A stretch of DNA of 64,000 nt, taken from assembly GCA_965115825.1 (NCBI GenBank), contig OZ220464.1:705530-769529 (forward strand), written 5' to 3'. The notes beneath the pieces are model-generated. The model was not told where the DNA came from. It saw only the letters and a list, made by a program, of their open reading frames with translations, and searched no databases. This document shows, piece after piece, positions 4,731-41,985 of this stretch. This stretch comes from Dehalococcoidia bacterium (GTDB lineage: Bacteria; Chloroflexota; Dehalococcoidia; Lucifugimonadales; UBA3495). The translations under genes were made by a program, and so were the position numbers. Each line of letters opens with the position of its first letter. Within the stretch, counting starts at the first letter, position 1.

Positions 4731-4839
4731 GGGCGGTTCGTGGCCGGGTTGCTTGACGGGATGGTAGGATATGGGGCGTTTGGTTCGGGCTTTGAGCCGG
4801 GGACGGACACGGCAGCATTTACTGAGACGGAGGAGAATT

Positions 4840-5397
4840 ATGGCAAGACTGCCCGTAGTAACGCGAGAGATGGTTCCGGAGGAGTTCCGGGGGGCTTTTG
4901 ACGAATTGACCGCAGAGACCGGGGGAACGATTACCGGGGGGCCTTACTCGGTAGCCATCAACAGCCCGGAGATGGCGCGCCGGCGCAGTCATCTGACTGC
5001 ATACCTGCGCTTTGAGAGCACTTTCGCCAAGCGGATTCAGGAGTTGGCGATTCTGACGACTGCCCGGTTTTTTGACTGTCCGTACATTTGGAACGCCCAC
5101 GCTCCGACGGCTCGGCGTGAGGGGGTGTCTGACGCGCTGGTGGACGCTTTGCGCGACCGGCGGCAGCTGCCGGCGATGGCGGATGATGAGCGGGCAATCA
5201 TCAACTACTGCAACGAGTTTTACGAGCATCACCGGGTTTCGGCGTCAACGTTTCAGATTGCGCTGGAGCAGTTTGGGGCGCAGCATCTGGTGGAATTGAC
5301 GGCGCTGATGGGGAGCTACGCGCAGACGGCGTTTTTCCTGAACGCTTTTGAGGTGGAGCTGCCGGCGGAGCGGACTGAGCCGGTTCTGCCGGTTTAG
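4840..5397 (+). CDS. Carboxymuconolactone decarboxylase (AhpD-like) family protein
   Basis: The ORF runs 4771..5397. ATG 4840 is preceded by GGAGGAG. The protein is all-helical and resembles this family (WNAHAP, LTALMGSYA). Confidence 0.55.
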   Translation: MARLPVVTREMVPEEFRGAFDELTAETGGTITGGPYSVAINSPEMARRRSHLTAYLRFESTFAKRIQELAILTTARFFDCPYIWNAHAPTARREGVSDALVDALRDRRQLPAMADDERAIINYCNEFYEHHRVSASTFQIALEQFGAQHLVELTALMGSYAQTAFFLNAFEVELPAERTEPVLPV

Positions 5398-6551: not shown

Positions 6552-7394
6552 CTAGAAGCTGGGCTTGCTGGCGTAGGGGGTGAGTTGGAGTTCGTGGGTC
6601 CAGCAGGATTTGTCTTGAGTGTGGAGGTAGTAGAAGGCTTCGGCGATGCTGACGGGGTTAATGAGGAGTTCGGGGTGCTGCTGGCCGCGGGGCATGGCTC
6701 GGGTGCCGGGGGAGTCGATGGTGCCGTCGATTACGATGTTGGCGACGTGGACGCCGTGCTCGGAGTATTCTTCGGTGAGGGCCTGGGCGAGGGTTCGCAT
6801 CATGACGCGGGGGTAGTAGAGGGACTGGCCGGTGTAGCGCTTGCGGCCGCGGAGACCGGCGGCGTTGTTGGAGAAGAGGATGCTGCCGGAGCCACGCCGT
6901 CGCATGGCGGGGAGGATTTCTTTGGCGACGAGGAAGGGGCCGCTGCTGGAGATGTGATGGGCGGTTTCGAACATTGAGTAGGGCATATGCTCCAGGAGTT
7001 CCATTTCGGGCGGGAGGTCGCGGCCTTCGAGGTAGCCGGCGTTATAGACGAGAACGTGAGGGTCGCCGGCCTGCTGTCGGATGTGGGCGAATGCGTTGGC
7101 GATTGAGTCGGGGGAGGAGAGGTCGAGTTCTACGATTATGCTATCGCCGCCCTGTTCGCGGATGGCGGCGCGCAGGGGTTCGGCGTTGGCGGCGGTGCGG
7201 GTGGTGAGAACGGTAAGAAAGCCTTCCTGGGCGAATTTCTGGGAGATAGCGCCGCCAACACCCCAGCGGACGCCGATGGGCAGGTTGGAGTCGTCGATGT
7301 TGCCGCCGTGGATGAGGTGGGTGTTGCGTCCGTCGGCCTGCCATTTGGAGGTGGCGCCGATGATGACGGCGACGGGTTTTCGGGATGAGGTCAT
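6552..7394 (-). CDS. SDR-family oxidoreductase
   Basis: Rossmann N-terminus VAVIIGATSKW, plus NAG and a YxxxK-like region. The start is set at ATG 7394 because the longer ORF (to 7496) would overlap the 3' end of the tmRNA. Confidence 0.7.
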   Translation of the reverse strand: MTSSRKPVAVIIGATSKWQADGRNTHLIHGGNIDDSNLPIGVRWGVGGAISQKFAQEGFLTVLTTRTAANAEPLRAAIREQGGDSIIVELDLSSPDSIANAFAHIRQQAGDPHVLVYNAGYLEGRDLPPEMELLEHMPYSMFETAHHISSSGPFLVAKEILPAMRRRGSGSILFSNNAAGLRGRKRYTGQSLYYPRVMMRTLAQALTEEYSEHGVHVANIVIDGTIDSPGTRAMPRGQQHPELLINPVSIAEAFYYLHTQDKSCWTHELQLTPYASKPSF

Positions 7395-7471
7395 GGTGAT
7401 ACGCCTATTGCATGGGTTGCCGCCGGGGCGGGATGAAGGGTTGGGGTGGGGAGAGATGGCACAAGAGGGGA

Positions 7472-7828
7472 TGGTGGAGACGGGGGAGAGTCGCACTCCC
7501 CGTCCAGAAACTCCCCTGAGCGGATATGCTACAAGCTTGTTCGGCGCTTTGGTCTTGCTACTAGGGACTCCCGCCGACGGGATTCGTAAGCAGCCAGCCG
7601 ATAAAAGTCTGTGGCCTCGGTCATCGGCGTCGCCGAGGTAGCATCCCGGAATAATTGGACGTCCGCTTCCCGGCTTCCGGGCCTACCGGTGGCAGACGTA
7701 GCCGCGGTTAAGCGGCTAGAGCGAATTCACGTTCGCCAGTTAATTGTTCGCCACCGTTTTAGCGAGGGCAGCGGCAGCCTCGGCTTGCAATCCGTCAGAA
7801 AACGCTCCTGTCGAACCTACGCGTCCCC
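7472..7828 (-). ncRNA. ssrA: tmRNA (SsrA), one-piece, 357 nt
   Basis: On the minus strand the 5' end reads GGGGACGCGTAGGTTCGACAGGAGC and the 3' end reads GGGGAGTGCGACTCTCCCCCGTCTCCACCA. The acceptor stem GGGGACG/CGTCTCC contains the G3:U pair used by AlaRS. An internal tag frame, GGC GAA CGT GAA TTC GCT CTA GCC GCT TAA (GEREFALAA-stop), lies at 7708..7737. Confidence 0.9.
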
Positions 7829-13927: not shown

Positions 13928-14908
13928 TTAATAGAGCAGCGGGGATATGTCGATTCTCTCGGCCAGCAGGTCGGCCATGCGCTCGGCTTTGTGGTCGTGG
14001 TGGGGGACTGCGGCGTCCAGCAGGTTGCCGATGGCATCGGCGGCGGCGACGGTTCCGGCGTCAACGAGGAGGACGGGGATGTTGCGTTTGGCGGCCTCTA
14101 CGCGGATGTACTCGGTGGGGCGCGCGCCGCCGGTTAGCACCAGGCAGAGAGTGTTCGGAACGAGGCTGGCCATCTGGATGTCGGGGCGCTCGGCGCGAGT
14201 GATGACGGCCTGGCGGGGGTAACGCCCGAAGTAGCCGGCGCCGGAGTCCATGATGTTGCCGCCGATGAGGAAGCGGTCGACCCAGGCTTCGGCATCGGAG
14301 GGTTCCAGTTCCCAGCGTCCGCCCAGAGAGTTGGCCAGTTGGGTCATGGTGAGGGAAAGCATGGGACGGTCTTCGGACAGCGCGCCGAGGGCGGGGACGC
14401 CGGCGGCGGCGATTTCGGCAAGTATTGAGGCGGCTTTGGCGACGCGGTAGCGCGGGGTCTGGTTGATGATGACGCCGGCCAGTCTGTCGCCCAAGTCGGA
14501 GACGGCGGCGGAGATAGTTGCGGCAGACAGCTCGGCGTCGTGGGCGAAAAGGGCGATGACACGGGCGGAGAGGCGTTCAGAGAGGCCGGTGGTCAATGGC
14601 GACGATATTCCGGAGCCGCTGACCGGATTGGCGACTTCCAAGAGGGTGTGCTCGTTGGCGTCGGAGAGGGCGCTGACGGCGTTGGCGGCGGCGTCCAGAG
14701 CGGCAGCGTCGCCAACGCCGGACACTGGAATATCGCTGTGAAAGCGGGAGGAGTAGAAGGCGGCGTCGGGGTCTGCGTCGCCAGCCGGGGAGAGAGGCTT
14801 GCAGAGGGATACGGAGGAGTGGCGGCGGGCGATGAGTTTCGCCAAGCCGGCGGCGACGGCAGTCTTGCCGGCGCCGGGGGTATGGGATGCGATGAGGAGA
14901 GTGGCCAT
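13928..14908 (-). CDS. P-loop (BioD/CobQ/Pta-N-terminal-like) + DRTGG domain protein
   Basis: N-terminal P-loop HTPGAGKTAVAAGLA. The C-terminal CLVLTGGARPTEYIRVEAAKRNIPVLLVD resembles a DRTGG domain. Confidence 0.6.
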   Translation of the reverse strand: MATLLIASHTPGAGKTAVAAGLAKLIARRHSSVSLCKPLSPAGDADPDAAFYSSRFHSDIPVSGVGDAAALDAAANAVSALSDANEHTLLEVANPVSGSGISSPLTTGLSERLSARVIALFAHDAELSAATISAAVSDLGDRLAGVIINQTPRYRVAKAASILAEIAAAGVPALGALSEDRPMLSLTMTQLANSLGGRWELEPSDAEAWVDRFLIGGNIMDSGAGYFGRYPRQAVITRAERPDIQMASLVPNTLCLVLTGGARPTEYIRVEAAKRNIPVLLVDAGTVAAADAIGNLLDAAVPHHDHKAERMADLLAERIDISPLLY

Positions 14909-15370: not shown

Positions 15371-16072
15371 TTAGTAGTCATCAACGCGGTTTTCGATGTA
15401 GGTGGGGTCGAAGCCGGGGGGAAATACGGTGGTGTCGTCCCACTTGCCCATGGTCATGTCACAGCGGTGGAGGCTGGCGCGGTTGAAGGTTGCGCCGCGG
15501 AGGTCGGTCATAATCCACATAGAGTCGCGGATTTTAGCGTTGGTGAAGTCGGCGCCGCGCATTACGGCGCGGCTGACGTCGGCGCCGTTGAGGTTGGCGC
15601 CCTGCCAGTTGGAGTTGGTGAGGTTGGCGGAGCGGAGGTCGACCTCAATAGCGGTGGTCTGGCTGCAATCGGCAGCAGTGAGGTCGGTATTGAGGAAGGT
15701 GGCGCGGTTGAGGCGGGACCATTGGAGGATGGCTTCCTGCATATTGGACTGCTTAAGGTCGGCCCAGAAGAGGTTGGCGTTGCGCAGGATGGCGGCGGAC
15801 ATTTGGGCGGAGGCAAGGGAGGCGCCGTAGAGGTCGGCGCCGGTGAGGTCGGCGGCGCTGAGGTCGGAACGGGAGAGGTTGGCTTTGGTGAGCCGGGCGT
15901 CGGTGAGGACGGCGCCGCGAAGGTCGGAGGCGCGCAAATCGGCGCCGGCAAGGTCAAGACCGGCCAGGTCGGCGGAGCGGAGGTCGAGGGGTTGGCCGGG
16001 GTTATCGGCGCGCCAGGCGGCCAGGGCAGCTTTGCCGGCGCGGATGATCGCCAGGTGTTCGTTGTTTGCCAT
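15371..16072 (-). CDS. Pentapeptide-repeat protein
   Basis: A(D/N)LxG-type pentapeptides run almost end to end (ADLAGLDLAGADLRASDLRGAVLTDARLTKANLSRSDLSAADLTGADL...). Confidence 0.9.
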   Translation of the reverse strand: MANNEHLAIIRAGKAALAAWRADNPGQPLDLRSADLAGLDLAGADLRASDLRGAVLTDARLTKANLSRSDLSAADLTGADLYGASLASAQMSAAILRNANLFWADLKQSNMQEAILQWSRLNRATFLNTDLTAADCSQTTAIEVDLRSANLTNSNWQGANLNGADVSRAVMRGADFTNAKIRDSMWIMTDLRGATFNRASLHRCDMTMGKWDDTTVFPPGFDPTYIENRVDDY

Positions 16073-16139
16073 GATGTTGGGGGTTCTCGCTTCTGCGGGA
16101 ATGACGGTTCTGGATGTGGGATGGAATGATGGTGTGGGG

Positions 16140-16454
16140 TTAGTTGTTGGCGGCCATCATTTCGTCTTCGACGTCGAAGATGCGTTCGGCGATGACCATT
16201 TTGAGTTCGTTGACTTTGCTGTAGCCGGGGTATTCGTCGTTTTCCTCGTCGTAGCGGTCGAAGATCTTGGCGCTGTCGAGGTAGATTTCAAGGCGGCCCT
16301 TGTCGGCAGGGGTGAGTTTGACGGCAATGTCGCCGGCGTTTTGGGAACGCCAGAATTCGGTCGCCAGCCACGTGGCGAGGCCGTGGTAGCCTCAAGGGAC
16401 GCAATAGACGATGTCCACGGTGACTTTGCCGAACTCGGAACGGGTCATAGTCAT
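16140..16454 (-). CDS. SelW/Rdx-family selenoprotein candidate (in-frame TGA = Sec at codon 21)
   Basis: Not in the ORF track. The start is ATG 16454, with AGGAG 8-9 nt upstream. The frame is open to TAA 16140 except for TGA at 16392..16394. Translation gives ...VTVDIVYCVP-U-GYHGLATWLATEF..., which matches the SelW CxxU-GY redox motif. Confidence 0.8.
16363..16390 (-). promoter_or_regulatory. Candidate bacterial SECIS stem-loop for the SelW-like gene
   Basis: On the minus strand: GCUA-CCACG-GCCUCGCCA-CGUGG-(C)-UGGC, starting 4 nt after the UGA. The helix is imperfect with a 9-nt loop. Confidence 0.4.
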
Positions 16455-16590
16455 GCGGGTTGCTCCTGTTATGCGGTTGTTGAGGAGGGGTATGCGGTTT
16501 GGCGGCATATTACGGAATGGCCTGGGCTGGGAGTTGTGGGTTTCACCTTGCGCCGGAATGCCGGTGTTTAGGGGGCGGCGGTTTATGGGG

Positions 16591-17013
16591 TTAGCGGATT
16601 ACGGCGCTGGCCTGGCCGACGGCGGTTTTGTCGCCGTTCTGGTTTTCGCAGTACACGTCAACGGTGACGAGTGTGGAGCCGTCGTCCTGAGGCTGTCGGC
16701 TGTTGACCTGGCCGTGGACGCTGACGGTGTCGCCATGCTTGACGGGGCGGAGGAATTTGAGGTTGACGTTGCCACTGCGGTGGAAGTCGTCGGGGCCGAT
16801 GAACTTGCGCATGGCTTCGGTGCAGAAGGCGATGCTCATGCGTCCGGAGGCGATGGCGTAGTTAGTTCCCAGGCGCTGGGAGGCGAGGTCGGGGTCGTTG
16901 TGGATGTTGGCGCGGTTCAGGATGCCGCAGGCTTCGAATTGATTGATGACGTCCTGGGTGATGTGCTTGGTGATGACGGGGAGGGTTTCGCCGTCTAGCC
17001 TTGTGGATGCCAT
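16591..17013 (-). CDS. MaoC-like (R)-hydratase/dehydratase, hotdog fold
   Basis: 140 aa. The region INQFEACGILNRANIHNDPDLA is a hydratase-2-like motif. The gene overlaps its upstream hotdog partner by 19 nt. Confidence 0.75.
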   Translation of the reverse strand: MASTRLDGETLPVITKHITQDVINQFEACGILNRANIHNDPDLASQRLGTNYAIASGRMSIAFCTEAMRKFIGPDDFHRSGNVNLKFLRPVKHGDTVSVHGQVNSRQPQDDGSTLVTVDVYCENQNGDKTAVGQASAVIR

Positions 17014-17420
17014 TTTTTGCCCAACTCCTCGGGTTTTTTAATCTGATAGGTGCGCATTTTTTCGATGAGGCGGCCGTCTTCGTCGGTGGCGGTGGCCTCG
17101 ATGACGAGGTAGGGTTTTTCGCGGCGGACGTATTTGTCGTGGATGCGTCCGGTGACGCGGATTTTCCTGCCGGGAAGGGGAGGGTTGTGGAGTTCGATTT
17201 CGTTGCCGGCGTTGATGCTGCCGGTCTGGTCGTCGTAGGCCAGGGCCAGGGAGGTGGCGTCGTGCTTAACGGCGATGGTGGGAAACACGGCATCGGGGTC
17301 GTCCACGGCCCGGCGGTAAAGGTCGACCATCTCCTGGGTCAGGAGGTATTCGTAGGAACCGAGTTCTTCGCCGATGGCGACTTCGTCGTAGAGGAACAGG
17401 GGGAGGTTTGGTTCGTCCAT
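16995..17420 (-). CDS. MaoC-N-terminal-type hotdog protein (partner subunit)
   Basis: Reads MDEPNLPLFLYDEVAIGEELGSYEYLLTQEMVDLYRRAV. It forms a HadAB-like pair with 16591..17013. ATG 17420 was chosen inside the longer ORF. Confidence 0.65.
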   Translation of the reverse strand: MDEPNLPLFLYDEVAIGEELGSYEYLLTQEMVDLYRRAVDDPDAVFPTIAVKHDATSLALAYDDQTGSINAGNEIELHNPPLPGRKIRVTGRIHDKYVRREKPYLVIEATATDEDGRLIEKMRTYQIKKPEELGKKWHPQG

Positions 17421-17506
17421 GGGGCACACTCGCTGGGGATTAGGGTAGGCGGGATTTACCATACCGCAGGCGGGGCCGGCAGTCAATGAATAGGGAAAGG
17501 GCTGCT

Positions 17507-21773: not shown

Positions 21774-21822
21774 AGGCCGGCGGCAAACCGCTGCGCTTAC
21801 CCGATGGTTGGGAAAGCGGCGA

Positions 21823-21862
21823 CGGCAGGGGCGGGTCTGCGGGCCTGCCCCTGCCGCTTTTA
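21823..21862 (+). terminator. Candidate intrinsic terminator after the surface-protein gene
   Basis: Stem CGGCAGGGGC / GCCCCTGCCG (21823-21832 / 21847-21856), followed by CTTTTA. Confidence 0.5.
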
Positions 21863-22201
21863 CGGTACAAGGACGCCGCCTCTCCCGGTTATGCTTCTAT
21901 ATCGGAATGGTAAGCACGGAAGCCCCGAGGCGCTTGCAAAACGCTCTTTTCCGCCGCTTGCATCTCAACGGTACACGACGTCCGATGCTCTGCTGTGCAG
22001 CAATCATCGGCTTGACCCGTCTTGCCCGATGATTGCCACGCCGTTTTGCAAGCGCCTCTCATTGTAGGATCGTGCAAAAATAAGCAACGCCCAAGGCGGG
22101 CAGCAATCAGGAGACGAATTCCGCCGCCTATGGTTGCGCCACGTAAATCGTGTAGACTGTCGCCAAAGAACAGCTTTCAATCGAAACCAAAAGGAGAAAC
22201 C

Positions 22202-22816
22202 ATGGGCAAAAAGTCACGGCGCCCCGGACGCCGCAACCGTGACACCAAAGGCGGAGCATTCGGCAGCAATGCGAATATCAGCAGACGCAGGGAATGCCAG
22301 CATCCTGAATACTTCGGCAATCCGGAACGCTGTTGCATTTGCGGCGGAGTAGTAGCCACTTGCGCCTGCGACTACCAGAAGGCAATGGCACATCTGGAAA
22401 CCTGCCACTCTGGTATCCCAATACCAGCGGTATCTGAAGCCGCATCAGTTCGTCAAACCGCAACCGGAGAGCCGTGCCCAAACGGGCACCCGGAGCAGGC
22501 GCAAGCGTGGATGCTCCACAGAACACCGCCGACGCGATGTGAAAGATGCGGCGAAACACCTACGTTCGGAGGGTACGCAATGAGCGCCAGCTTCGCTCCG
22601 GAAGCCAACTACGGACTACCGGAACACGCGACCAGGCAGTGGGTTGAGGAACATTCCGAACCTGACGAATTTGGCGCCGTGCCGATACCGGCCAGCTACG
22701 GGGACGGCCTATTTACCCATGCCACCTACGAGCCGGATTGCGACCACTTCAGGGAAGACTGTAATTGCGCAACAGACGTCTCCGTAATGTGGACGCTGGC
22801 AGAGTACAGCGGATAG
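22202..22816 (+). CDS. Cys-rich hypothetical protein (orphan)
   Basis: AAAGGAGAAACC precedes ATG 22202. The protein is 204 aa with a basic N-terminus and about 14 Cys in CxxC / CxC-like clusters (CCICGGVVATCAC, CERCGE, CDHFREDCNC). It lies in an AT-richer islet. Confidence 0.5.
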   Translation: MGKKSRRPGRRNRDTKGGAFGSNANISRRRECQHPEYFGNPERCCICGGVVATCACDYQKAMAHLETCHSGIPIPAVSEAASVRQTATGEPCPNGHPEQAQAWMLHRTPPTRCERCGETPTFGGYAMSASFAPEANYGLPEHATRQWVEEHSEPDEFGAVPIPASYGDGLFTHATYEPDCDHFREDCNCATDVSVMWTLAEYSG

Positions 22817-22828
22817 GCACAAAGCCGA

Positions 22829-23806
22829 CTACGCTACCCGCAGCATCCCGTTTAGAGCAGCCTTCGGTCCACGCCGTGTCATCCGCGCCAGCGCCATGGC
22901 GACGAACATAACCACCGCCAACAGGAAATGAAGGCTTACCCTTGCCTCGCCCCGGCAGGTGTGGTTCTCAACCCACCCGCTTTCAAACCACCAACTGAAG
23001 AACCGCTCTACTGCCCAGCGCTTCGGATAAATACGATTCCAGTCTGGCGATGCACGGCTGATGCGCCCGCCCAAAGTGTAGGGATCATCGTCAAAGGACT
23101 CCCATACCTCATCGTCACAAACCGAGTACCCTTTGAACGGCTCCCGCCGGCGATGGCAGCCGCCTGCGAGGCAACGGAACCCGTGTAACCCAGCCGACAA
23201 ATCGGTGCCTATGAACTTCATTGCTTTTCCGCCCAGGCAAACCGGCTCGCCATTCAGAGTATGGATGTTTGACTTGGAACGATTGCGCCGGGCGATGCGT
23301 GGTATGACTGGCGCCGCGCCCAAATCGTGGATTGCCTTAACGTTCTCCCGACCTTCTTAGCCGATAAAGGCTACGACGGTCGCAGGTTCAAACCAATCGT
23401 AGTTCTCCTTGCACCATGAAAGCAGCTTACGGAGAAAAGGCGAGTCGTTCTCGTTTGCTGGCGAAACATCGCAGGCTATCGGCAACCCAGTGTGAGCATC
23501 CACTACGGCATGGACCTTCCAGCCATAGATCCAGACCGTCCCGTCGGGTTCCTTGGAACGCGGGTCGTGAACCTTGCCCCAGGCAGCTCCCTGGTCCCGC
23601 GTCTTATCGTTATGCGGTGTGCGCAGCGCTCGGGTAGGTATCCGTAAATCTTGAAGTGCGCCGTAATGTGATGTTTCCGGCGAAGTGTTCGCCTTTGTGG
23701 CACCCTGCGGTGAAGCATGGGCCGAAGAGCTTACAACCTGTAAGCCGTTTTGGCCTCTGATGCCGGCCTGCTGGCCCGCCGAGGCATGATCAGCGAGATG
23801 GCCATC
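22829..23806 (-). pseudogene. Decayed DDE transposase (IS4/IS5-like, DDE_Tnp_1 type)
   Basis: A single minus-strand frame reads ...DGTVWIYGWKVHAVVDAHTGLPIACDVSPANENDSPFLRKLL...FEPATVVAFIG-stop-EGRENVKAIHDLGAAPVIP...YPKRWAVERFF.... There is no start codon. A TAA stop at 23357..23359 sits where the ADxGYD motif should be. Confidence 0.75.
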
Positions 23807-23991
23807 TCACTGAATAGCGCGACGATATTGGCGCAGGTTGTGTAGTATAGACTACCTACGCCAAAAAGAATAAGGTGCGATTACGTAATTCGTCACGTAG
23901 CTGGAGCTTTTCTGCAATCGGCTGATGGAATCGCGAGTAGCGAAATCGCCTCGGCTACTAGCGCCAATCGTATCAAACGCACACGGATGAT

Positions 23992-24573
23992 ATGATGACA
24001 ACCGTTGTCCCCCTCCGCAAAAACCGGCCCTGGCTGTGGATAGCCGGCATCGTAGCGGCGTTGGCCGTCCTGGCGGTAGCGTTCTACATACTCACAACCC
24101 CCGACACGCCCAGCCAGGCAGGAGAACGGTACATTGAAGACCACTACGACGCGCTGGCCGAAGCCGCTGTCAAGGCTGCCCTCCTCGACATCCCAATCAT
24201 GGCCGAGATTCTCGCCGAAGTTGTCGAGTCCGCCGCAGAGCGTATCGTTCCGTACACTTGCCGCGCCCCGGAAGCCGGCGATCTGACCGAAATTGACGTG
24301 CGCTGCACCTTGTTGTTCGGCGCTGACGCGCCGCTCAACCTCAAGATTATCGCCCCATTCACGCTCACTATCGACCTGACCGGCAGCGATATGTTCGGCA
24401 GAACCGTGCCGGACGTAACCGGCGCCGATCTAATTAAGTCTGAGGTAGAAGTAAGCGGCCTGAACCTGGAACATCTGCGTCAGGTGAGAGACGCGCTCGT
24501 TGACCAAGCCGGAGACGCCTTGGACCAGATCCAGCAAACCGGCGACGGCATCAAAAACCTCCTCGACCGCTGA
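23992..24573 (+). CDS. Hypothetical membrane-anchored protein
   Basis: 193 aa. It has one N-terminal TM segment (WLWIAGIVAALAVLAVAFYIL) and an acidic soluble domain. I recognise no family. Confidence 0.45.
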   Translation: MMTTVVPLRKNRPWLWIAGIVAALAVLAVAFYILTTPDTPSQAGERYIEDHYDALAEAAVKAALLDIPIMAEILAEVVESAAERIVPYTCRAPEAGDLTEIDVRCTLLFGADAPLNLKIIAPFTLTIDLTGSDMFGRTVPDVTGADLIKSEVEVSGLNLEHLRQVRDALVDQAGDALDQIQQTGDGIKNLLDR

Positions 24574-30268: not shown

Positions 30269-30664
30269 TCAACTCCCTTGACGTTTCCGGTATAACTCCA
30301 CTGCTGCCGCGCCAATCACGGAACCCCTGATTGGCGGCCGGGGTTTGCTGACCCGCACCCGCACGGCGGACACCATAGCCTGCCGGCAAAGCACAACGTC
30401 CGCGATGTTCCTCGCCGCCGCCTCCAGCAGATTGTACGGTTCCCCTTCCATCACATCCCGCGCTGCCCGGTACAGGTCAGTGTAACTCACGGTATCCGTC
30501 AGGTTGTCCGACGCCCCAGCCTGCCCCAAGTCCAACTCCGCTGTCAGGTCAACTATAAAAGGCTGACCCAAACGCCGCTCCTCAGGATTCACGCCGTGGA
30601 AGCCATAGAACTGCATCCCGGTGAGGATGATGCGGTCAACAGTCGTTTCGCCGTCCCTATCCAT
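30269..30664 (-). CDS. folB: Dihydroneopterin aldolase
   Basis: The sequence RIILTGMQFYGFHGVNPEERRLGQPFIVDL is the FolB signature region. The length is 131 aa. Confidence 0.85.
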   Translation of the reverse strand: MDRDGETTVDRIILTGMQFYGFHGVNPEERRLGQPFIVDLTAELDLGQAGASDNLTDTVSYTDLYRAARDVMEGEPYNLLEAAARNIADVVLCRQAMVSAVRVRVSKPRPPIRGSVIGAAAVELYRKRQGS

Positions 30665-30784
30665 TGCTACCTGCTATCTTCCCCCCAATCCCGCAACGCC
30701 GGTCATGCCCGCCAACCCCGTCACTCCGGCAATTCGTGCCATTACCGCCCCTCGTATCGTAATTTCCAGGAAAGCGGGAATCCG

Positions 30785-31666
30785 TTACCCGCCCGTCTGC
30801 CGCTCAATCTCCGCCACCAGCGCCAGCAGATTCTGCGCCCGCTTCACTACCGGAACGTCCACCATCCGACCGTCTATGGAGAGAGAACCCCGGCCGGCTG
30901 CTTCCGCCTCATCCCAAGCCGCCATGACCCGCCGGGCATAGGCTACGTCATCGGGATGAGGCGAGAAAGTCTCGTTGATAACGTCAATTTGCGCCGGGTG
31001 GATGGCAAACTTCCCCGTGTAGCCCATCTGCCGTGCATTGCCCGCGTCGACGCGCAGGCTGTCCGGGTCGCGGAACCCCACAAACGGGCCATCCAGCGCA
31101 GCGACGCCGGCCGCTTTGGCCGCTACCGCCACTGCTGACCGGGCATAGTAGCATTCCTCGCCAAAATCGCTGCGTATTACGCCCATATCGTTGGTGTAAT
31201 CCTCCCCGCCGAAAGCGATGCCGGCAATGCGTCGGGAAGCGCGCGCCATCTCATATACATGAACGATGGCCATGGCCGTCTCAATCCACGGAATCACCCG
31301 CAGCCGGCCGGGTTCAATGCCGGCCCCCGCTTCCAACGGAGCCAGCAGCCGGTCAACCTGCTCCAAGTCCCACCGGGTCTCCCCCTTGCCGATGCTGATG
31401 CCCGCCAAGTCCGGCGACGCCACCGCTGTCAGCTCGTCCGCTGTCAGCCCGGTGTCCAGCGAGTTCACCCTTACCATCACCCGCCGGCCCGCTGCCCGCA
31501 GCTTGGGTATCCACGCCACCGCCAGCTCACGCGCCGCCGCTTTCTCACCCGGCGGCACCGAGTCTTCCAAGTCAACCATCACTACGTCGGCCCCGAACCC
31601 CAGTGCCCGCCCCAGCATATTGACGCGATTCCCCGGCACGAATACCAGGCTGCGCAGTAATTCCAT
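30785..31666 (-). CDS. HpcH/HpaI aldolase / citrate-lyase beta (CitE)-like lyase
   Basis: Reads LRSLVFVPGNRVNMLGRALGFGADVVMVDLEDSV, with a later IHPAQI. ATG 31666 lies just after the polA stop. Confidence 0.8.
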   Translation of the reverse strand: MELLRSLVFVPGNRVNMLGRALGFGADVVMVDLEDSVPPGEKAAARELAVAWIPKLRAAGRRVMVRVNSLDTGLTADELTAVASPDLAGISIGKGETRWDLEQVDRLLAPLEAGAGIEPGRLRVIPWIETAMAIVHVYEMARASRRIAGIAFGGEDYTNDMGVIRSDFGEECYYARSAVAVAAKAAGVAALDGPFVGFRDPDSLRVDAGNARQMGYTGKFAIHPAQIDVINETFSPHPDDVAYARRVMAAWDEAEAAGRGSLSIDGRMVDVPVVKRAQNLLALVAEIERQTGG

Positions 31667-39215: not shown

Positions 39216-39779
39216 ATGCCCGCCGCCAGCGCCCCTGTCGTCCAGCTCATCGACCCCACCGGCTTTGACCCCGGCGCGACTCCTCTCATTATGGCCCCCC
39301 GGCCCGTTGACCTTCGCGGCGGGCGGCTCGGCCTGCTGGACAACTCCAAGGCCAATTCCGATGCCATCCTGTGGGCCATCGCCCACGCCCTCGACGAAGA
39401 GTTTGAGTTTGCGGACATCTTTTATGTCCGCAAGCACAACGCCTCTTTGCCGCCTCATCCCCAAGTCTTGGCCGACCTGCATCGCAACGCAGACTTCGTA
39501 ATCGCCGGCGTGGGTGATTGAGGCGGTTGTTCGTCGGGCAGTTTGCACGACGGAATTACCTTGGAGCGGCAGGGGATCCCGGCGGCCGCCATTATTACCA
39601 ACGTGTTCGCCAACACCGCCCGCGCCTACACCAGACTGATGGGCGTCCCCGATTTCCCCTACCTGATGTGTCCGCACCCCATTACCAACGTCGCCGCCGA
39701 GGGCCTGCAAGACCGGGCCCAACTGCTCGCTCCTGACGTCCGCCGTCTGCTCATCAACGGCGCTCTGACCAATAGTTAG
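39216..39779 (+). CDS. UxxC (UGSC-like) selenoprotein candidate, in-frame TGA = Sec at codon 102
   Basis: ORFs 39216..39521 and 39543..39779 are in the same frame and are separated only by TGA 39519..39521. Read through, the sequence is ...FVIAGVGD-U-GGCSSGSLHDGITLERQGIPAAAIITNVF.... A TAAGGAG RBS precedes the start. Confidence 0.7.
39530..39554 (+). promoter_or_regulatory. Candidate bacterial SECIS stem-loop for the UxxC gene
   Basis: UUCGUCG / CGACGGA stem (7 bp including one G-U pair). It is extended by GCA/UGC around an apical GUU loop. It starts 9 nt after the UGA. Confidence 0.45.
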
Positions 39780-39792
39780 CCCCGACGTCTCC

Positions 39793-41985
39793 ATGCCAGG
39801 CTTGGGCGACATATTCCGACGCATTACCCGCCGCTCCCGCCGGGAGCAAGAGCCGGACAGCGCCCCCGATTCAACAGAACTCCCAACCGACGAAGCTCCT
39901 GACGCCGAACCCGACCAACCCTTGCCTGCCTCGTCAGCCGCCGCCGAACCCCCACTGTCAGCCGCTGCCGAACCCCCACCGTCAGCCGCTGCCGAGCCCC
40001 CACTGTCAACCGCCGCCGAACCCACACTGTCAGCTGCCGCCGAACTCACACTGTCAACCGCCGCCGAACCCCCACTGTCAGCCGCTGCCGAGCCCCCACT
40101 GTCAACCGCCGCCGAACCCCCACTGTCAACCGCTGCCGAACCCCCACTGTCAGCCGCTGCCGAACCCCCACTGTCAGCCGCTGCCGAACCCCCACCGTCA
40201 GCCGCTGCCGAACCCCCACCGTCAGCCGCTGCCGAACCCCCACTGTCAACCGCTGCCGAACCCCCACTGTCAGCTGCTACTGACCCCCTACCGCCAATCA
40301 CTACTGACCCCCCGCCTTCAGCCGCTGCCGAATCCGCGCCACCAATCGCTCGCGAACTTCCGCTGTCGGAGGCCGCCGCCGTACCCCAACCGTCTCCGCC
40401 CGTCCCCGAGTACACTCCACTCCGCGAGCCTGCCGGCGTCTTTGCTTCGGAGCCGGCCGGCCCAGTTATTGCGGAACCATCGCCGCCGCTGCCACCCTCT
40501 CCCGTCTCTGCTCCGTCCTCCTCTCCTAACGATGAGTTGCGCGAAGACCACCTGTTGCTGGACTGCCCCTATTGCGGCCTGACCGAACAGCGCATGGGAG
40601 CCCGATGTGATAATTGCGGTCAGGTGGTGGTGCGTCTCCCCTCCTGGGCCCAACATCGCCGTCGCAATTGGCTCCTGGAGCGATTGGCTTGGCGTCGTAT
40701 CATCGCGGCCTGCGCCATCGTTCTGTTCGTTCTGTTCGTGGTCTGGATTAACTATCCTTTCGTGCCCAATCCGGTGATTTTCTTCAAAAATGTCCAGACC
40801 AATACGACCGCCGATGACGGCCCCGGCGTCTGGTCAATCAGTGGCCGCGACCTGCGCAACACGCGGTTCGTTTCCGTAGGCTATCCCCCCCCGGTGGGCA
40901 CTATTGTCTGGAATACCAACATCCCTGAGCCCCTCAAATCCGAGCCGGTATCTCAGGATTCCAATATCTACCTCGGCTCCGCCAACGGTATCTTTCTTAT
41001 TGGGGTCAATAACCCCAATCCGGAAGAAGACGGTAAAATCCGCGCCGGCTGGGAAGGAGAAACCCCCGGACGAATCACCGCCGCCGCTGCCGTGGTCGAT
41101 TCCCACCTCTTCTTCGGCAGTACCGACAAAACCGTCAACGCCTGGAACGCCCGCACTGGAAACCCCGAATGGACATTTCCCGCCGAAGATACCGTCGAAG
41201 TTCCCCCCGTCATCGTCAACGGTATGGTCTATATCGCCTCTGGCCTGGGTTGGCTCTACGCCCTTGACGCCCAAAGTGGCTCCCTCATTTGGAAAGTTCA
41301 GCTGAATAGCAACGCCAGCGGAGCGGTCGCCGTGTACGAAGGAAGATTGATGGTTGGCGACCAGGATGGCGTTTTCCACGTACTGTCCACCCGCACTGGC
41401 CAGGAGCGGTTCCGCTTCCGCACTCCCCGAGCTATCCAGGGATCCCCCGTAATCTCCGAAGATGGCCAGCGCGCTTTCTTCGCTTCCTCGGGCCAGCTTT
41501 ATTCGGTACGCGCAGACCGTAGGGAATTCCCCGGCCTCTACCAGTTCAAGCAGGTTTGGGCCCAACTCTGGCTCTGGCAAGTCCCCGGCGTCCCACGCCC
41601 GCAGGGGCAGCAGGGCGGGCTGTGGCGATTCAGCCCCAATAACCCCTTGCGCGGCATTCATAGCGCTCCCGCCCTCGCCAACGACCTCGGTCAGGAATCC
41701 CTCTACGTCGGCGGCCACGACCGCATGATGTACTCCCTGAACGCCGCCGACGGTTCTGTACTTTGGGCTTTCCAAGCGGAAAACGCCATTCTCGCTTCCC
41801 CTCTGATAGTAAAAGACCGTCTCATCTTCGGGGATGCCAGCGGCTACCTTTATTCCCTCCACCGCGAAGACGGCTCCGTTGACTGGAAGATCTTCATGGG
41901 ATCCAGCATCGCCATTCCGCCCATTCTCAGCAATGACCTGCTCATAGTCCGCACTGTATCCGGGGATATTTTCGGCATCAAATAA
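39793..41985 (+). CDS. Membrane protein: Pro/Ala repeat region, zinc ribbon, TM segment, PQQ-like beta-propeller
   Basis: The N-terminus carries (AAEPP[LP]S[AT])n repeats. The zinc ribbon is CPYCGL...CDNCGQ. The TM segment is IIAACAIVLFVLFVVWI. The C-terminal ~430 aa have repeated propeller blades (DGSVLWAF, SGSLIWKV, DGSVDWKI). Confidence 0.7.
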   Translation: MPGLGDIFRRITRRSRREQEPDSAPDSTELPTDEAPDAEPDQPLPASSAAAEPPLSAAAEPPPSAAAEPPLSTAAEPTLSAAAELTLSTAAEPPLSAAAEPPLSTAAEPPLSTAAEPPLSAAAEPPLSAAAEPPPSAAAEPPPSAAAEPPLSTAAEPPLSAATDPLPPITTDPPPSAAAESAPPIARELPLSEAAAVPQPSPPVPEYTPLREPAGVFASEPAGPVIAEPSPPLPPSPVSAPSSSPNDELREDHLLLDCPYCGLTEQRMGARCDNCGQVVVRLPSWAQHRRRNWLLERLAWRRIIAACAIVLFVLFVVWINYPFVPNPVIFFKNVQTNTTADDGPGVWSISGRDLRNTRFVSVGYPPPVGTIVWNTNIPEPLKSEPVSQDSNIYLGSANGIFLIGVNNPNPEEDGKIRAGWEGETPGRITAAAAVVDSHLFFGSTDKTVNAWNARTGNPEWTFPAEDTVEVPPVIVNGMVYIASGLGWLYALDAQSGSLIWKVQLNSNASGAVAVYEGRLMVGDQDGVFHVLSTRTGQERFRFRTPRAIQGSPVISEDGQRAFFASSGQLYSVRADRREFPGLYQFKQVWAQLWLWQVPGVPRPQGQQGGLWRFSPNNPLRGIHSAPALANDLGQESLYVGGHDRMMYSLNAADGSVLWAFQAENAILASPLIVKDRLIFGDASGYLYSLHREDGSVDWKIFMGSSIAIPPILSNDLLIVRTVSGDIFGIK
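39937..40272 (+). repeat. 24-bp tandem repeat x14 inside the CDS
   Basis: GCCGCYGCCGAACCCCCACYGTCA units run head to tail. Degenerate copies flank them out to about 40345. Confidence 0.9.

Follow-up and report, generated by a model that had tools for sequence, protein, structure and literature searches.

The locus lies on the minus strand of a 64-kb stretch of Dehalococcoidia DNA (64,000 nucleotides, from here on the window). It holds a frame of 104 codons, which we read as the gene of a small selenocysteine (Sec)-containing protein of the SelW-like (Rdx) family. The frame starts with an ATG (16454-16452) and ends with a TAA (16142-16140). It contains a single in-frame TGA (16394-16392). This TGA is codon 21 and sits in the motif CVP-U-GY, where U denotes Sec. 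The gene and the features around it are listed in Table 1.

A preliminary description, made from the letters alone, had proposed this frame with its one TGA and an AGGAG Shine-Dalgarno sequence in front of the ATG. The sequence agrees on these points, with a spacer of 8 nt, and the translation given there is identical to the string we derived again. The product has a mass of about 11.5 kDa, as estimated from its length. The frame had also been said to be missing from the list of open reading frames (ORFs). We checked the list and found this to be so: the TGA comes after just 20 codons, and the next ATG, GTG or TTG is not before codon 86. Hence, if the in-frame TGA is a Sec codon, standard gene callers will miss or truncate the gene.

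Table 1. Position of the SelW-like gene, its signals, its neighbours and the second TGA-containing gene in the window.
Feature	Position	Strand	Description and basis
SelW-like (Rdx family) coding sequence	16140..16454	-	104 codons plus TAA; CxxU (Cys18, Sec21); Pfam, profile, entropy
Shine-Dalgarno-like AGGAG	16463..16467	-	8 nt 5' of ATG; read from the sequence
TGC codon, Cys18 of CxxU, resolving Cys	16401..16403	-	invariant Cys, 77 distinct sequences
In-frame TGA, read as Sec codon 21	16392..16394	-	TGA in 82/82 orthologous sequences; TGT (Cys) in P0003
Proximal stem GAGGCU/GGCCUC	16377..16393	-	includes GA of UGA; single-sequence minimum-energy fold; overlaps base of conserved hairpin by 2 nt
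Conserved hairpin UCGCCA-CGUGGC-UGGCGA, proposed bSECIS	16361..16378	-	starts 13 nt after UGA; RNAalifold, covariation, frozen sites
Hotdog gene, 163-aa partner of MaoC gene	16995-17486	-	overlaps MaoC gene
MaoC-like dehydratase gene	16591-17013	-	MaoC_dehydratas, E = 1.1e-7
Pentapeptide-repeat gene	15371..16072	-	67 nt 3' of SelW-like gene; Pfam Pentapeptide, E = 8.6e-37
DRTGG/AAA_26 protein gene	13928-14908	-	downstream in SelW-like gene order
UGSC-family selenoprotein gene	39216..39779	+	TGA 39519-39521 in U-G-G-C; NF041046, PF24696

The genes next to the SelW-like gene are all on the minus strand, in the order hotdog, MaoC dehydratase, SelW-like, pentapeptide-repeat, small ORF and DRTGG/AAA_26. 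The window as a whole is an ordinary chromosomal region with genes for PolA, IleRS, aspartokinase, Fpg, thiamine biosynthesis and an Opp-type ABC transporter, and with a tmRNA. The tmRNA is full length according to Rfam (RF00023, 120.6 bits; 7472-7828, minus strand); ARAGORN reported neither a tmRNA nor a tRNA in the window. An adh_short ORF (6552-7496) overlaps the tmRNA 3' end by about 25 nt, and its GTG start is therefore probably too far upstream. The stretch 21800-24000, including 22829-23323 (minus strand), is without the usual GC3-rich coding signature and shows a weak DDE transposase fragment (PF01609, E = 3e-5). It may be the remnant of an insertion sequence.

Membership of the Rdx family

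The preliminary description had assigned the protein to the SelW/Rdx family by its motif, and searches with U replaced by C uphold the assignment. The Pfam model Rdx (PF10262, formerly PF05169) matches residues 12-86 with 44.1 bits (cutoff 22.6; E = 2.5e-11), so that the TGA lies inside the match. With the NCBIfam model TIGR02174 (CXXU_selWTH) the window protein scores 31.2 bits, slightly under the cutoff of 34.2. All 21 clade members tested match this model (best E = 1.1e-13).

A profile of the clade matches all solved structures of the Rdx family in the PDB, the bacterial SelW-related proteins among them. 2p0g (E = 3e-8), 2obk, 2fa8, 3dex, 2oka and 2ojl are all found, with E-values from 3e-8 to 1.6e-4. 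The alignments cover residues 3-72 or more, at an identity of roughly 25-30%. In the redox motif the columns correspond one to one: the CxxC of 2p0g (Vibrio cholerae), 2fa8 (Agrobacterium Atu0228) and 2obk falls onto C18-V-P-U21, with YCVPCGY facing YCRQCNW and YCTQCNW. In contrast to the protein described here, these proteins are CxxC forms and none is a selenoprotein as crystallised.

The mammalian members of the Rdx superfamily carry CxxU (SelW) or CxxC at the equivalent position. The similarity of the clade profile to them is weak, with E = 5e-3 for MIEN1 (C17orf37; 2ljk) and E = 0.14 for mouse SelW (2npb). The comparison that had been drawn between V-x-Y-C-x-x-U-G-Y and the mammalian VVYCGAUGY is apt.

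The Rdx fold is a thioredoxin-like beta-alpha-beta-beta-beta-alpha arrangement. For the Cys-form homolog P0003 an AlphaFold2 model was available, which is of moderate confidence (pLDDT 65.6) and leaves the 19 N-terminal residues (beta1) unmodelled. The predicted elements (H21-33, E43-48, E52-59, E62-71 and H76-100) are compatible with the Rdx fold. A Foldseek search of this model against the PDB returned no match with E < 1e-3.

The SelW-like CxxU proteins of prokaryotes were described in 2005. Among the known selenoprotein families of marine prokaryotes, theirs is the most abundant (PMC1088965, PMC2398784). The protein from the window resembles them in its length of about 100 aa, in its marine origin and in an N-terminal CxxU that follows a hydrophobic beta-strand (VDIVYC-VP-U). 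It differs from them in several respects. The SAR202 clade is fairly divergent, the window protein falls just below the TIGR02174 cutoff, and it has an acidic C-terminal helix (…FDVEDEMMAANN). Furthermore, the SAR202 gene stands in a fixed order with the pentapeptide-repeat gene and the MaoC/hotdog pair.

The TGA codon across relatives

The database search returned 69 homologs, most of which are calls of 57-74 aa that start just past the U column. Among the full-length homologs, three have a 'W' at this column (P0001, P0002 and P0004) and one has a Cys. We fetched 80 genomic loci, all from metagenome-assembled genomes (MAGs) of Dehalococcoidia, SAR202 or Chloroflexota, many of them sponge-derived. 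These Dehalococcoidia/SAR202 loci, the window and the metagenome contig L081, which is about 98% identical to the window locus, make up 82 orthologous sequences.

The column had been singled out as the place to look for Cys or Sec in homologs, and the answer is uniform. TGA is found in 82/82 orthologous sequences, 77 of which are distinct in nucleotides, down to a protein identity of about 60%. The genomic codon of the 'W' homolog P0004 is actually TGA as well. A sense codon occurs in the metagenomic homolog P0003, the sole Cys form available, where the genomic DNA has TGT. Judged by their codons, the TGA orthologs and P0003 are a classic Sec/Cys pair. Sec forms also dominate the known prokaryotic SelW-like CxxU proteins (427 Sec versus 56 Cys in GOS; PMC2398784 Table 2). 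With 82 TGA forms versus one Cys form, the SAR202 clade is strictly Sec-using, which is mildly new.

If the TGA were a sequencing or assembly error, the true codon would be Cys or another sense codon; if the gene were a pseudogene, it would be dead. One base separates TGA from TGC and TGT, and the gene is unannotated in the source assemblies, as either of these explanations would allow. An assembly error had been named from the start as a reason to doubt the Sec codon. It is ruled out by 82 independent assemblies that share the TGA, long-read complete chromosomes among them.

Selection on the frame speaks against a pseudogene. Upstream of the TGA, the entropy over 14 codons is 0.14, 0.01 and 1.04 bits at codon positions 1, 2 and 3. 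Downstream, over 30 codons, the values are 0.32, 0.18 and 0.99 bits. Because the entropy is concentrated at the third position, both flanks evolve as coding sequence. By this measure, both are under strong protein-level purifying selection and belong to one continuous frame. Error and pseudogene together thus retain a negligible probability.

Probable selenocysteine decoding and the hairpin 3' of the UGA

The TGA could also be a sense codon of a reassigned code, meaning Trp (table 4) or Gly (table 25) at position 21. The database entries P0001, P0002 and P0004 do show a W, where pipelines translated the TGA as Trp. The remaining genes of the window tell otherwise. Of the 27 genes with domain support, six have TGA as their stop, and an in-frame TGA is present in two selenoprotein genes and in none of the other 25. 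TGA is an ordinary stop in the window, and a code in which it is always sense is hence excluded. Moreover, the aligned column holds Cys (CxxC) in the sense-codon homolog and in the solved family members, and the in-frame TGAs of the window, two in all, each fall on the catalytic column of a different known selenoprotein family. We give a reassigned code practically no chance.

The second of these genes is the one at 39216, which had been put forward as a sign that the organism decodes Sec. It belongs to the UGSC selenoprotein family; 'UGSC-containing' proteins are another major selenoprotein family. Both curated cutoffs are exceeded, with 127 bits for NF041046 (cutoff 125) and 176 bits for PF24696 (cutoff 25). 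The TGA is the U of UxxC in the motif D-U-G-G-C, and standard ORF finding yields two fragments of the gene, with 101 and 78 aa. A hairpin at 39520-39562 (-15.2 kcal/mol, z = -2.0) ends in an apical GUU loop. With the U of UGA numbered +1, this loop occupies +23 to +25 and its G-U +23/+24.

Directly 3' of the UGSC gene lies a gene for a PQQ/beta-propeller protein (39793-41985). It contains a 24-nt tandem repeat (39933-40332, plus strand; 16.7 copies, 87% identity), which encodes about 16 AAEPPLS(A/T) octapeptides in the N-terminal region of the protein.

Other in-frame TGAs were considered and rejected. A third candidate (30596-31660, plus strand; RHC-U-PG) is an antisense-like translation of a gene on the minus strand that encodes an HpcH/HpaI aldolase (E = 1e-50). 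The remaining candidates overlap domain-supported genes on the opposite strand or are without a coding signature. A CMD/AhpD-like protein (PF02627) is encoded at 4771-5397 on the plus strand, with no in-frame TGA in this copy. The CMD/AhpD-like family includes known CxxU selenoproteins.

Downstream of the UGA in the SelW-like gene lies a hairpin. Given 54 distinct sequences, RNAalifold predicted this one conserved hairpin, unprompted. It has a stem of 6 bp and the loop CGUGGC, and it is found in every TGA form. The distant TGA form L084 retains it exactly (GUCGCCACGUGGCUGGCGAC). In the Cys form P0003 the hairpin is absent (AUGGCCAUGUGGAUGCUGACC).

One pair of the stem, 21-36, covaries. It is CG in 45 sequences, UA in three, AU in two, UG in two and GU in one; in a single sequence it is broken. 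Both sides of this pair are third codon positions. Other third positions do not vary at all, namely those of Ala +6 (GCC), Leu +9 (CUG) and Pro -1 (CCU), whereas other four-fold sites have entropies of 1.4-1.8 bits.

Folded alone, the hairpin has an energy of -8.6 kcal/mol, a stability that does not stand out for a single sequence (z about -1.5). An Rfam scan of the window at gathering thresholds gave the tmRNA as its only hit and nothing at the hairpin. Taken by itself the hairpin is short and of ordinary stability; the comparative data carry the argument. It is kept in the TGA forms, its synonymous sites are frozen, one pair covaries and the Cys form lacks it. For these reasons it is bSECIS-like. 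Part of its conservation reflects constraint on the protein, since the hairpin overlaps conserved codons.

We propose that the hairpin behaves as a bacterial SECIS element (bSECIS) and would be bound by SelB. In the E. coli fdhF bSECIS, G23 and U24 are the contacts of SelB; the loop G-U of our hairpin is at +24/+25. In contrast to the fdhF element, the conserved stem has just 6 bp, and we identified no bulged U. The qualitative criterion in the literature (PMC1088965) asks for a stable stem-loop that follows the UGA at once and bears a G in its small apical loop, and the hairpin has this form. In eukaryotic SelW genes the SECIS element is in the 3' UTR, whereas here the hairpin is within the coding sequence.

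An imperfect stem-loop had been placed at 16363-16390 in the preliminary description. The part of this claim that stands is that a conserved hairpin follows the UGA. The range given spans two elements, and the second, a stem proximal to the UGA, is kept in only part of the clade. Although the single-sequence fold favours the proximal stem, a third of the alignment (15-18 of the 54 sequences) cannot form three of its six pairs. The proximal stem is clade-specific, and as the conserved element we rejected it in favour of the distal hairpin.

The Pro codon immediately before the UGA (16395-16397, minus strand) is CCU, with an invariant third base in the 77 distinct TGA forms. It is CCC in the one Cys form. 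The CCU may be a context requirement for the recoding of the UGA. The frozen CCU-UGA context in the SAR202 clade is mildly new.

As had been stated before, the window contains no Sec machinery: searches for selA, selB, selD and tRNA-Sec all came back empty. None of the four was found in the flanks of L001-L060 either. For tRNA-Sec this absence is expected and uninformative, because these loci are syntenic flanks.

Relatives in which the machinery has been catalogued carry the same TGA gene. Two of the ortholog contigs, L026 and L079, come from the SAR202 bins bin87 (MPNC) and bin22 (MPMM) of Slaby et al. 2017. The COG counts for SelA, SelB and SelD are 3, 1 and 1 in bin87 and 2, 1 and 1 in bin22, and all three proteins are present in 5/5 SAR202 bins of that study (PMC5649159, Table S4). 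Sec use in the phylum Chloroflexota was previously known (PMC1794560). In BSepDB (2026), two Dehalococcoidia MAGs rank among the top ten bacteria by number of selenoprotein genes, with 49 and 46 (PMC13326102).

Alternatively, the UGA could be handled without a Sec pathway. Termination would release a 20-residue peptide and leave the rest untranslated or re-initiated, or a near-cognate tRNA would read through with Cys or Trp, and the hairpin would have some other role. The small size of the hairpin, its one covarying pair and the lack of Sec machinery within the 64-kb window would fit such a scenario. Yet the 83 codons downstream of the UGA are strongly selected in frame with the 20 upstream, and no ATG, GTG or TTG precedes codon 86. 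SelA, SelB and SelD are present in bin87 and bin22. The loop G-U at +24/+25 matches that of the UGSC hairpin (+23/+24) and of fdhF (G23/U24). Finally, the hairpin goes together with the TGA and is missing from the Cys form, which speaks against this scenario and also against an error or a pseudogene. We consider decoding without Sec very improbable, if somewhat less so than the two alternatives above.

In our preferred reading, with a probability of roughly nine in ten, the locus is a SelW-like (Rdx-family) Sec-encoding gene of marine or sponge-associated SAR202/Dehalococcoidia (Chloroflexota). Translation would then proceed as follows. A ribosome would start at the ATG at 16454 and, at codon 21, meet the UGA. 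Instead of terminating, it would receive Sec from SelB-GTP-Sec-tRNA(Sec), with SelB presumably tethered by the hairpin (16378-16361) 13 nt downstream. The protein would have a thioredoxin-like fold, with its redox centre Cys18-x-x-Sec21 where the first helix begins. Most likely it would be a thiol/selenol oxidoreductase that acts through a selenenylsulfide, where family knowledge is the guide to both chemistry and substrate.

Gene neighbourhood, annotation and possible function

The order of genes around the SelW-like gene is conserved. The pentapeptide-repeat gene lies directly 3' on the same strand in 81/81 loci (L001-L081), even at 55-60% identity. The MaoC/hotdog pair is upstream in 71/81 loci and the DRTGG/AAA_26 gene downstream in 68/81. 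In L084 the gene order is the same as in the window. The invariant linkage of the SelW-like and pentapeptide-repeat genes is mildly new.

No terminator-like site was found on the minus strand between the genes of this neighbourhood, including the pentapeptide-repeat gene. Co-transcription of the SelW-like gene with the downstream pentapeptide-repeat gene and the upstream MaoC/hotdog pair is plausible from this arrangement.

The Cys-form homolog (TGT; L082 712-1905 and L083) has other neighbours. It adjoins OsmC and glutaredoxin genes and is without the pentapeptide/MaoC context. Such a neighbourhood would be consistent with a role as a thiol oxidoreductase.

A more specific function can be imagined. 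The SelW-like protein would be the obligate-Sec redox part of a conserved module of four to five genes (hotdog, MaoC, SelW-like, pentapeptide-repeat and DRTGG/AAA_26), and either the pentapeptide-repeat protein or some acyl-thioester intermediate might be its partner or substrate. The CCU-UGA and the 6-bp hairpin might likewise be a lineage-specific minimal bSECIS. This is a speculative proposal, and we think it rather unlikely. If it were true, the module or the minimal bSECIS would offer the first way into the function of bacterial SelW-like proteins.

Public records systematically mis-annotate the SelW-like gene. It appears as N-terminally truncated 'hypothetical proteins' of 57-74 aa, with a spurious Trp, or beneath an ORF on the opposite strand. 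An example of the last is L081, where a 156-aa ORF (2326-2796, about 16100-16570 of the window, plus strand; ENA ERZ24894574:ctg6738l) was called across the locus.

The locus is an unannotated addition to a known selenoprotein family, and it leaves unchanged what is known of Sec decoding and of the family. Because the gene is systematically mis-annotated, proteome and pangenome analyses of SAR202 and of sponge-symbiont Chloroflexota under-count selenoproteins. The unusually fixed neighbourhood of a strictly Sec-dependent clade could help to find out what bacterial SelW-like proteins do.
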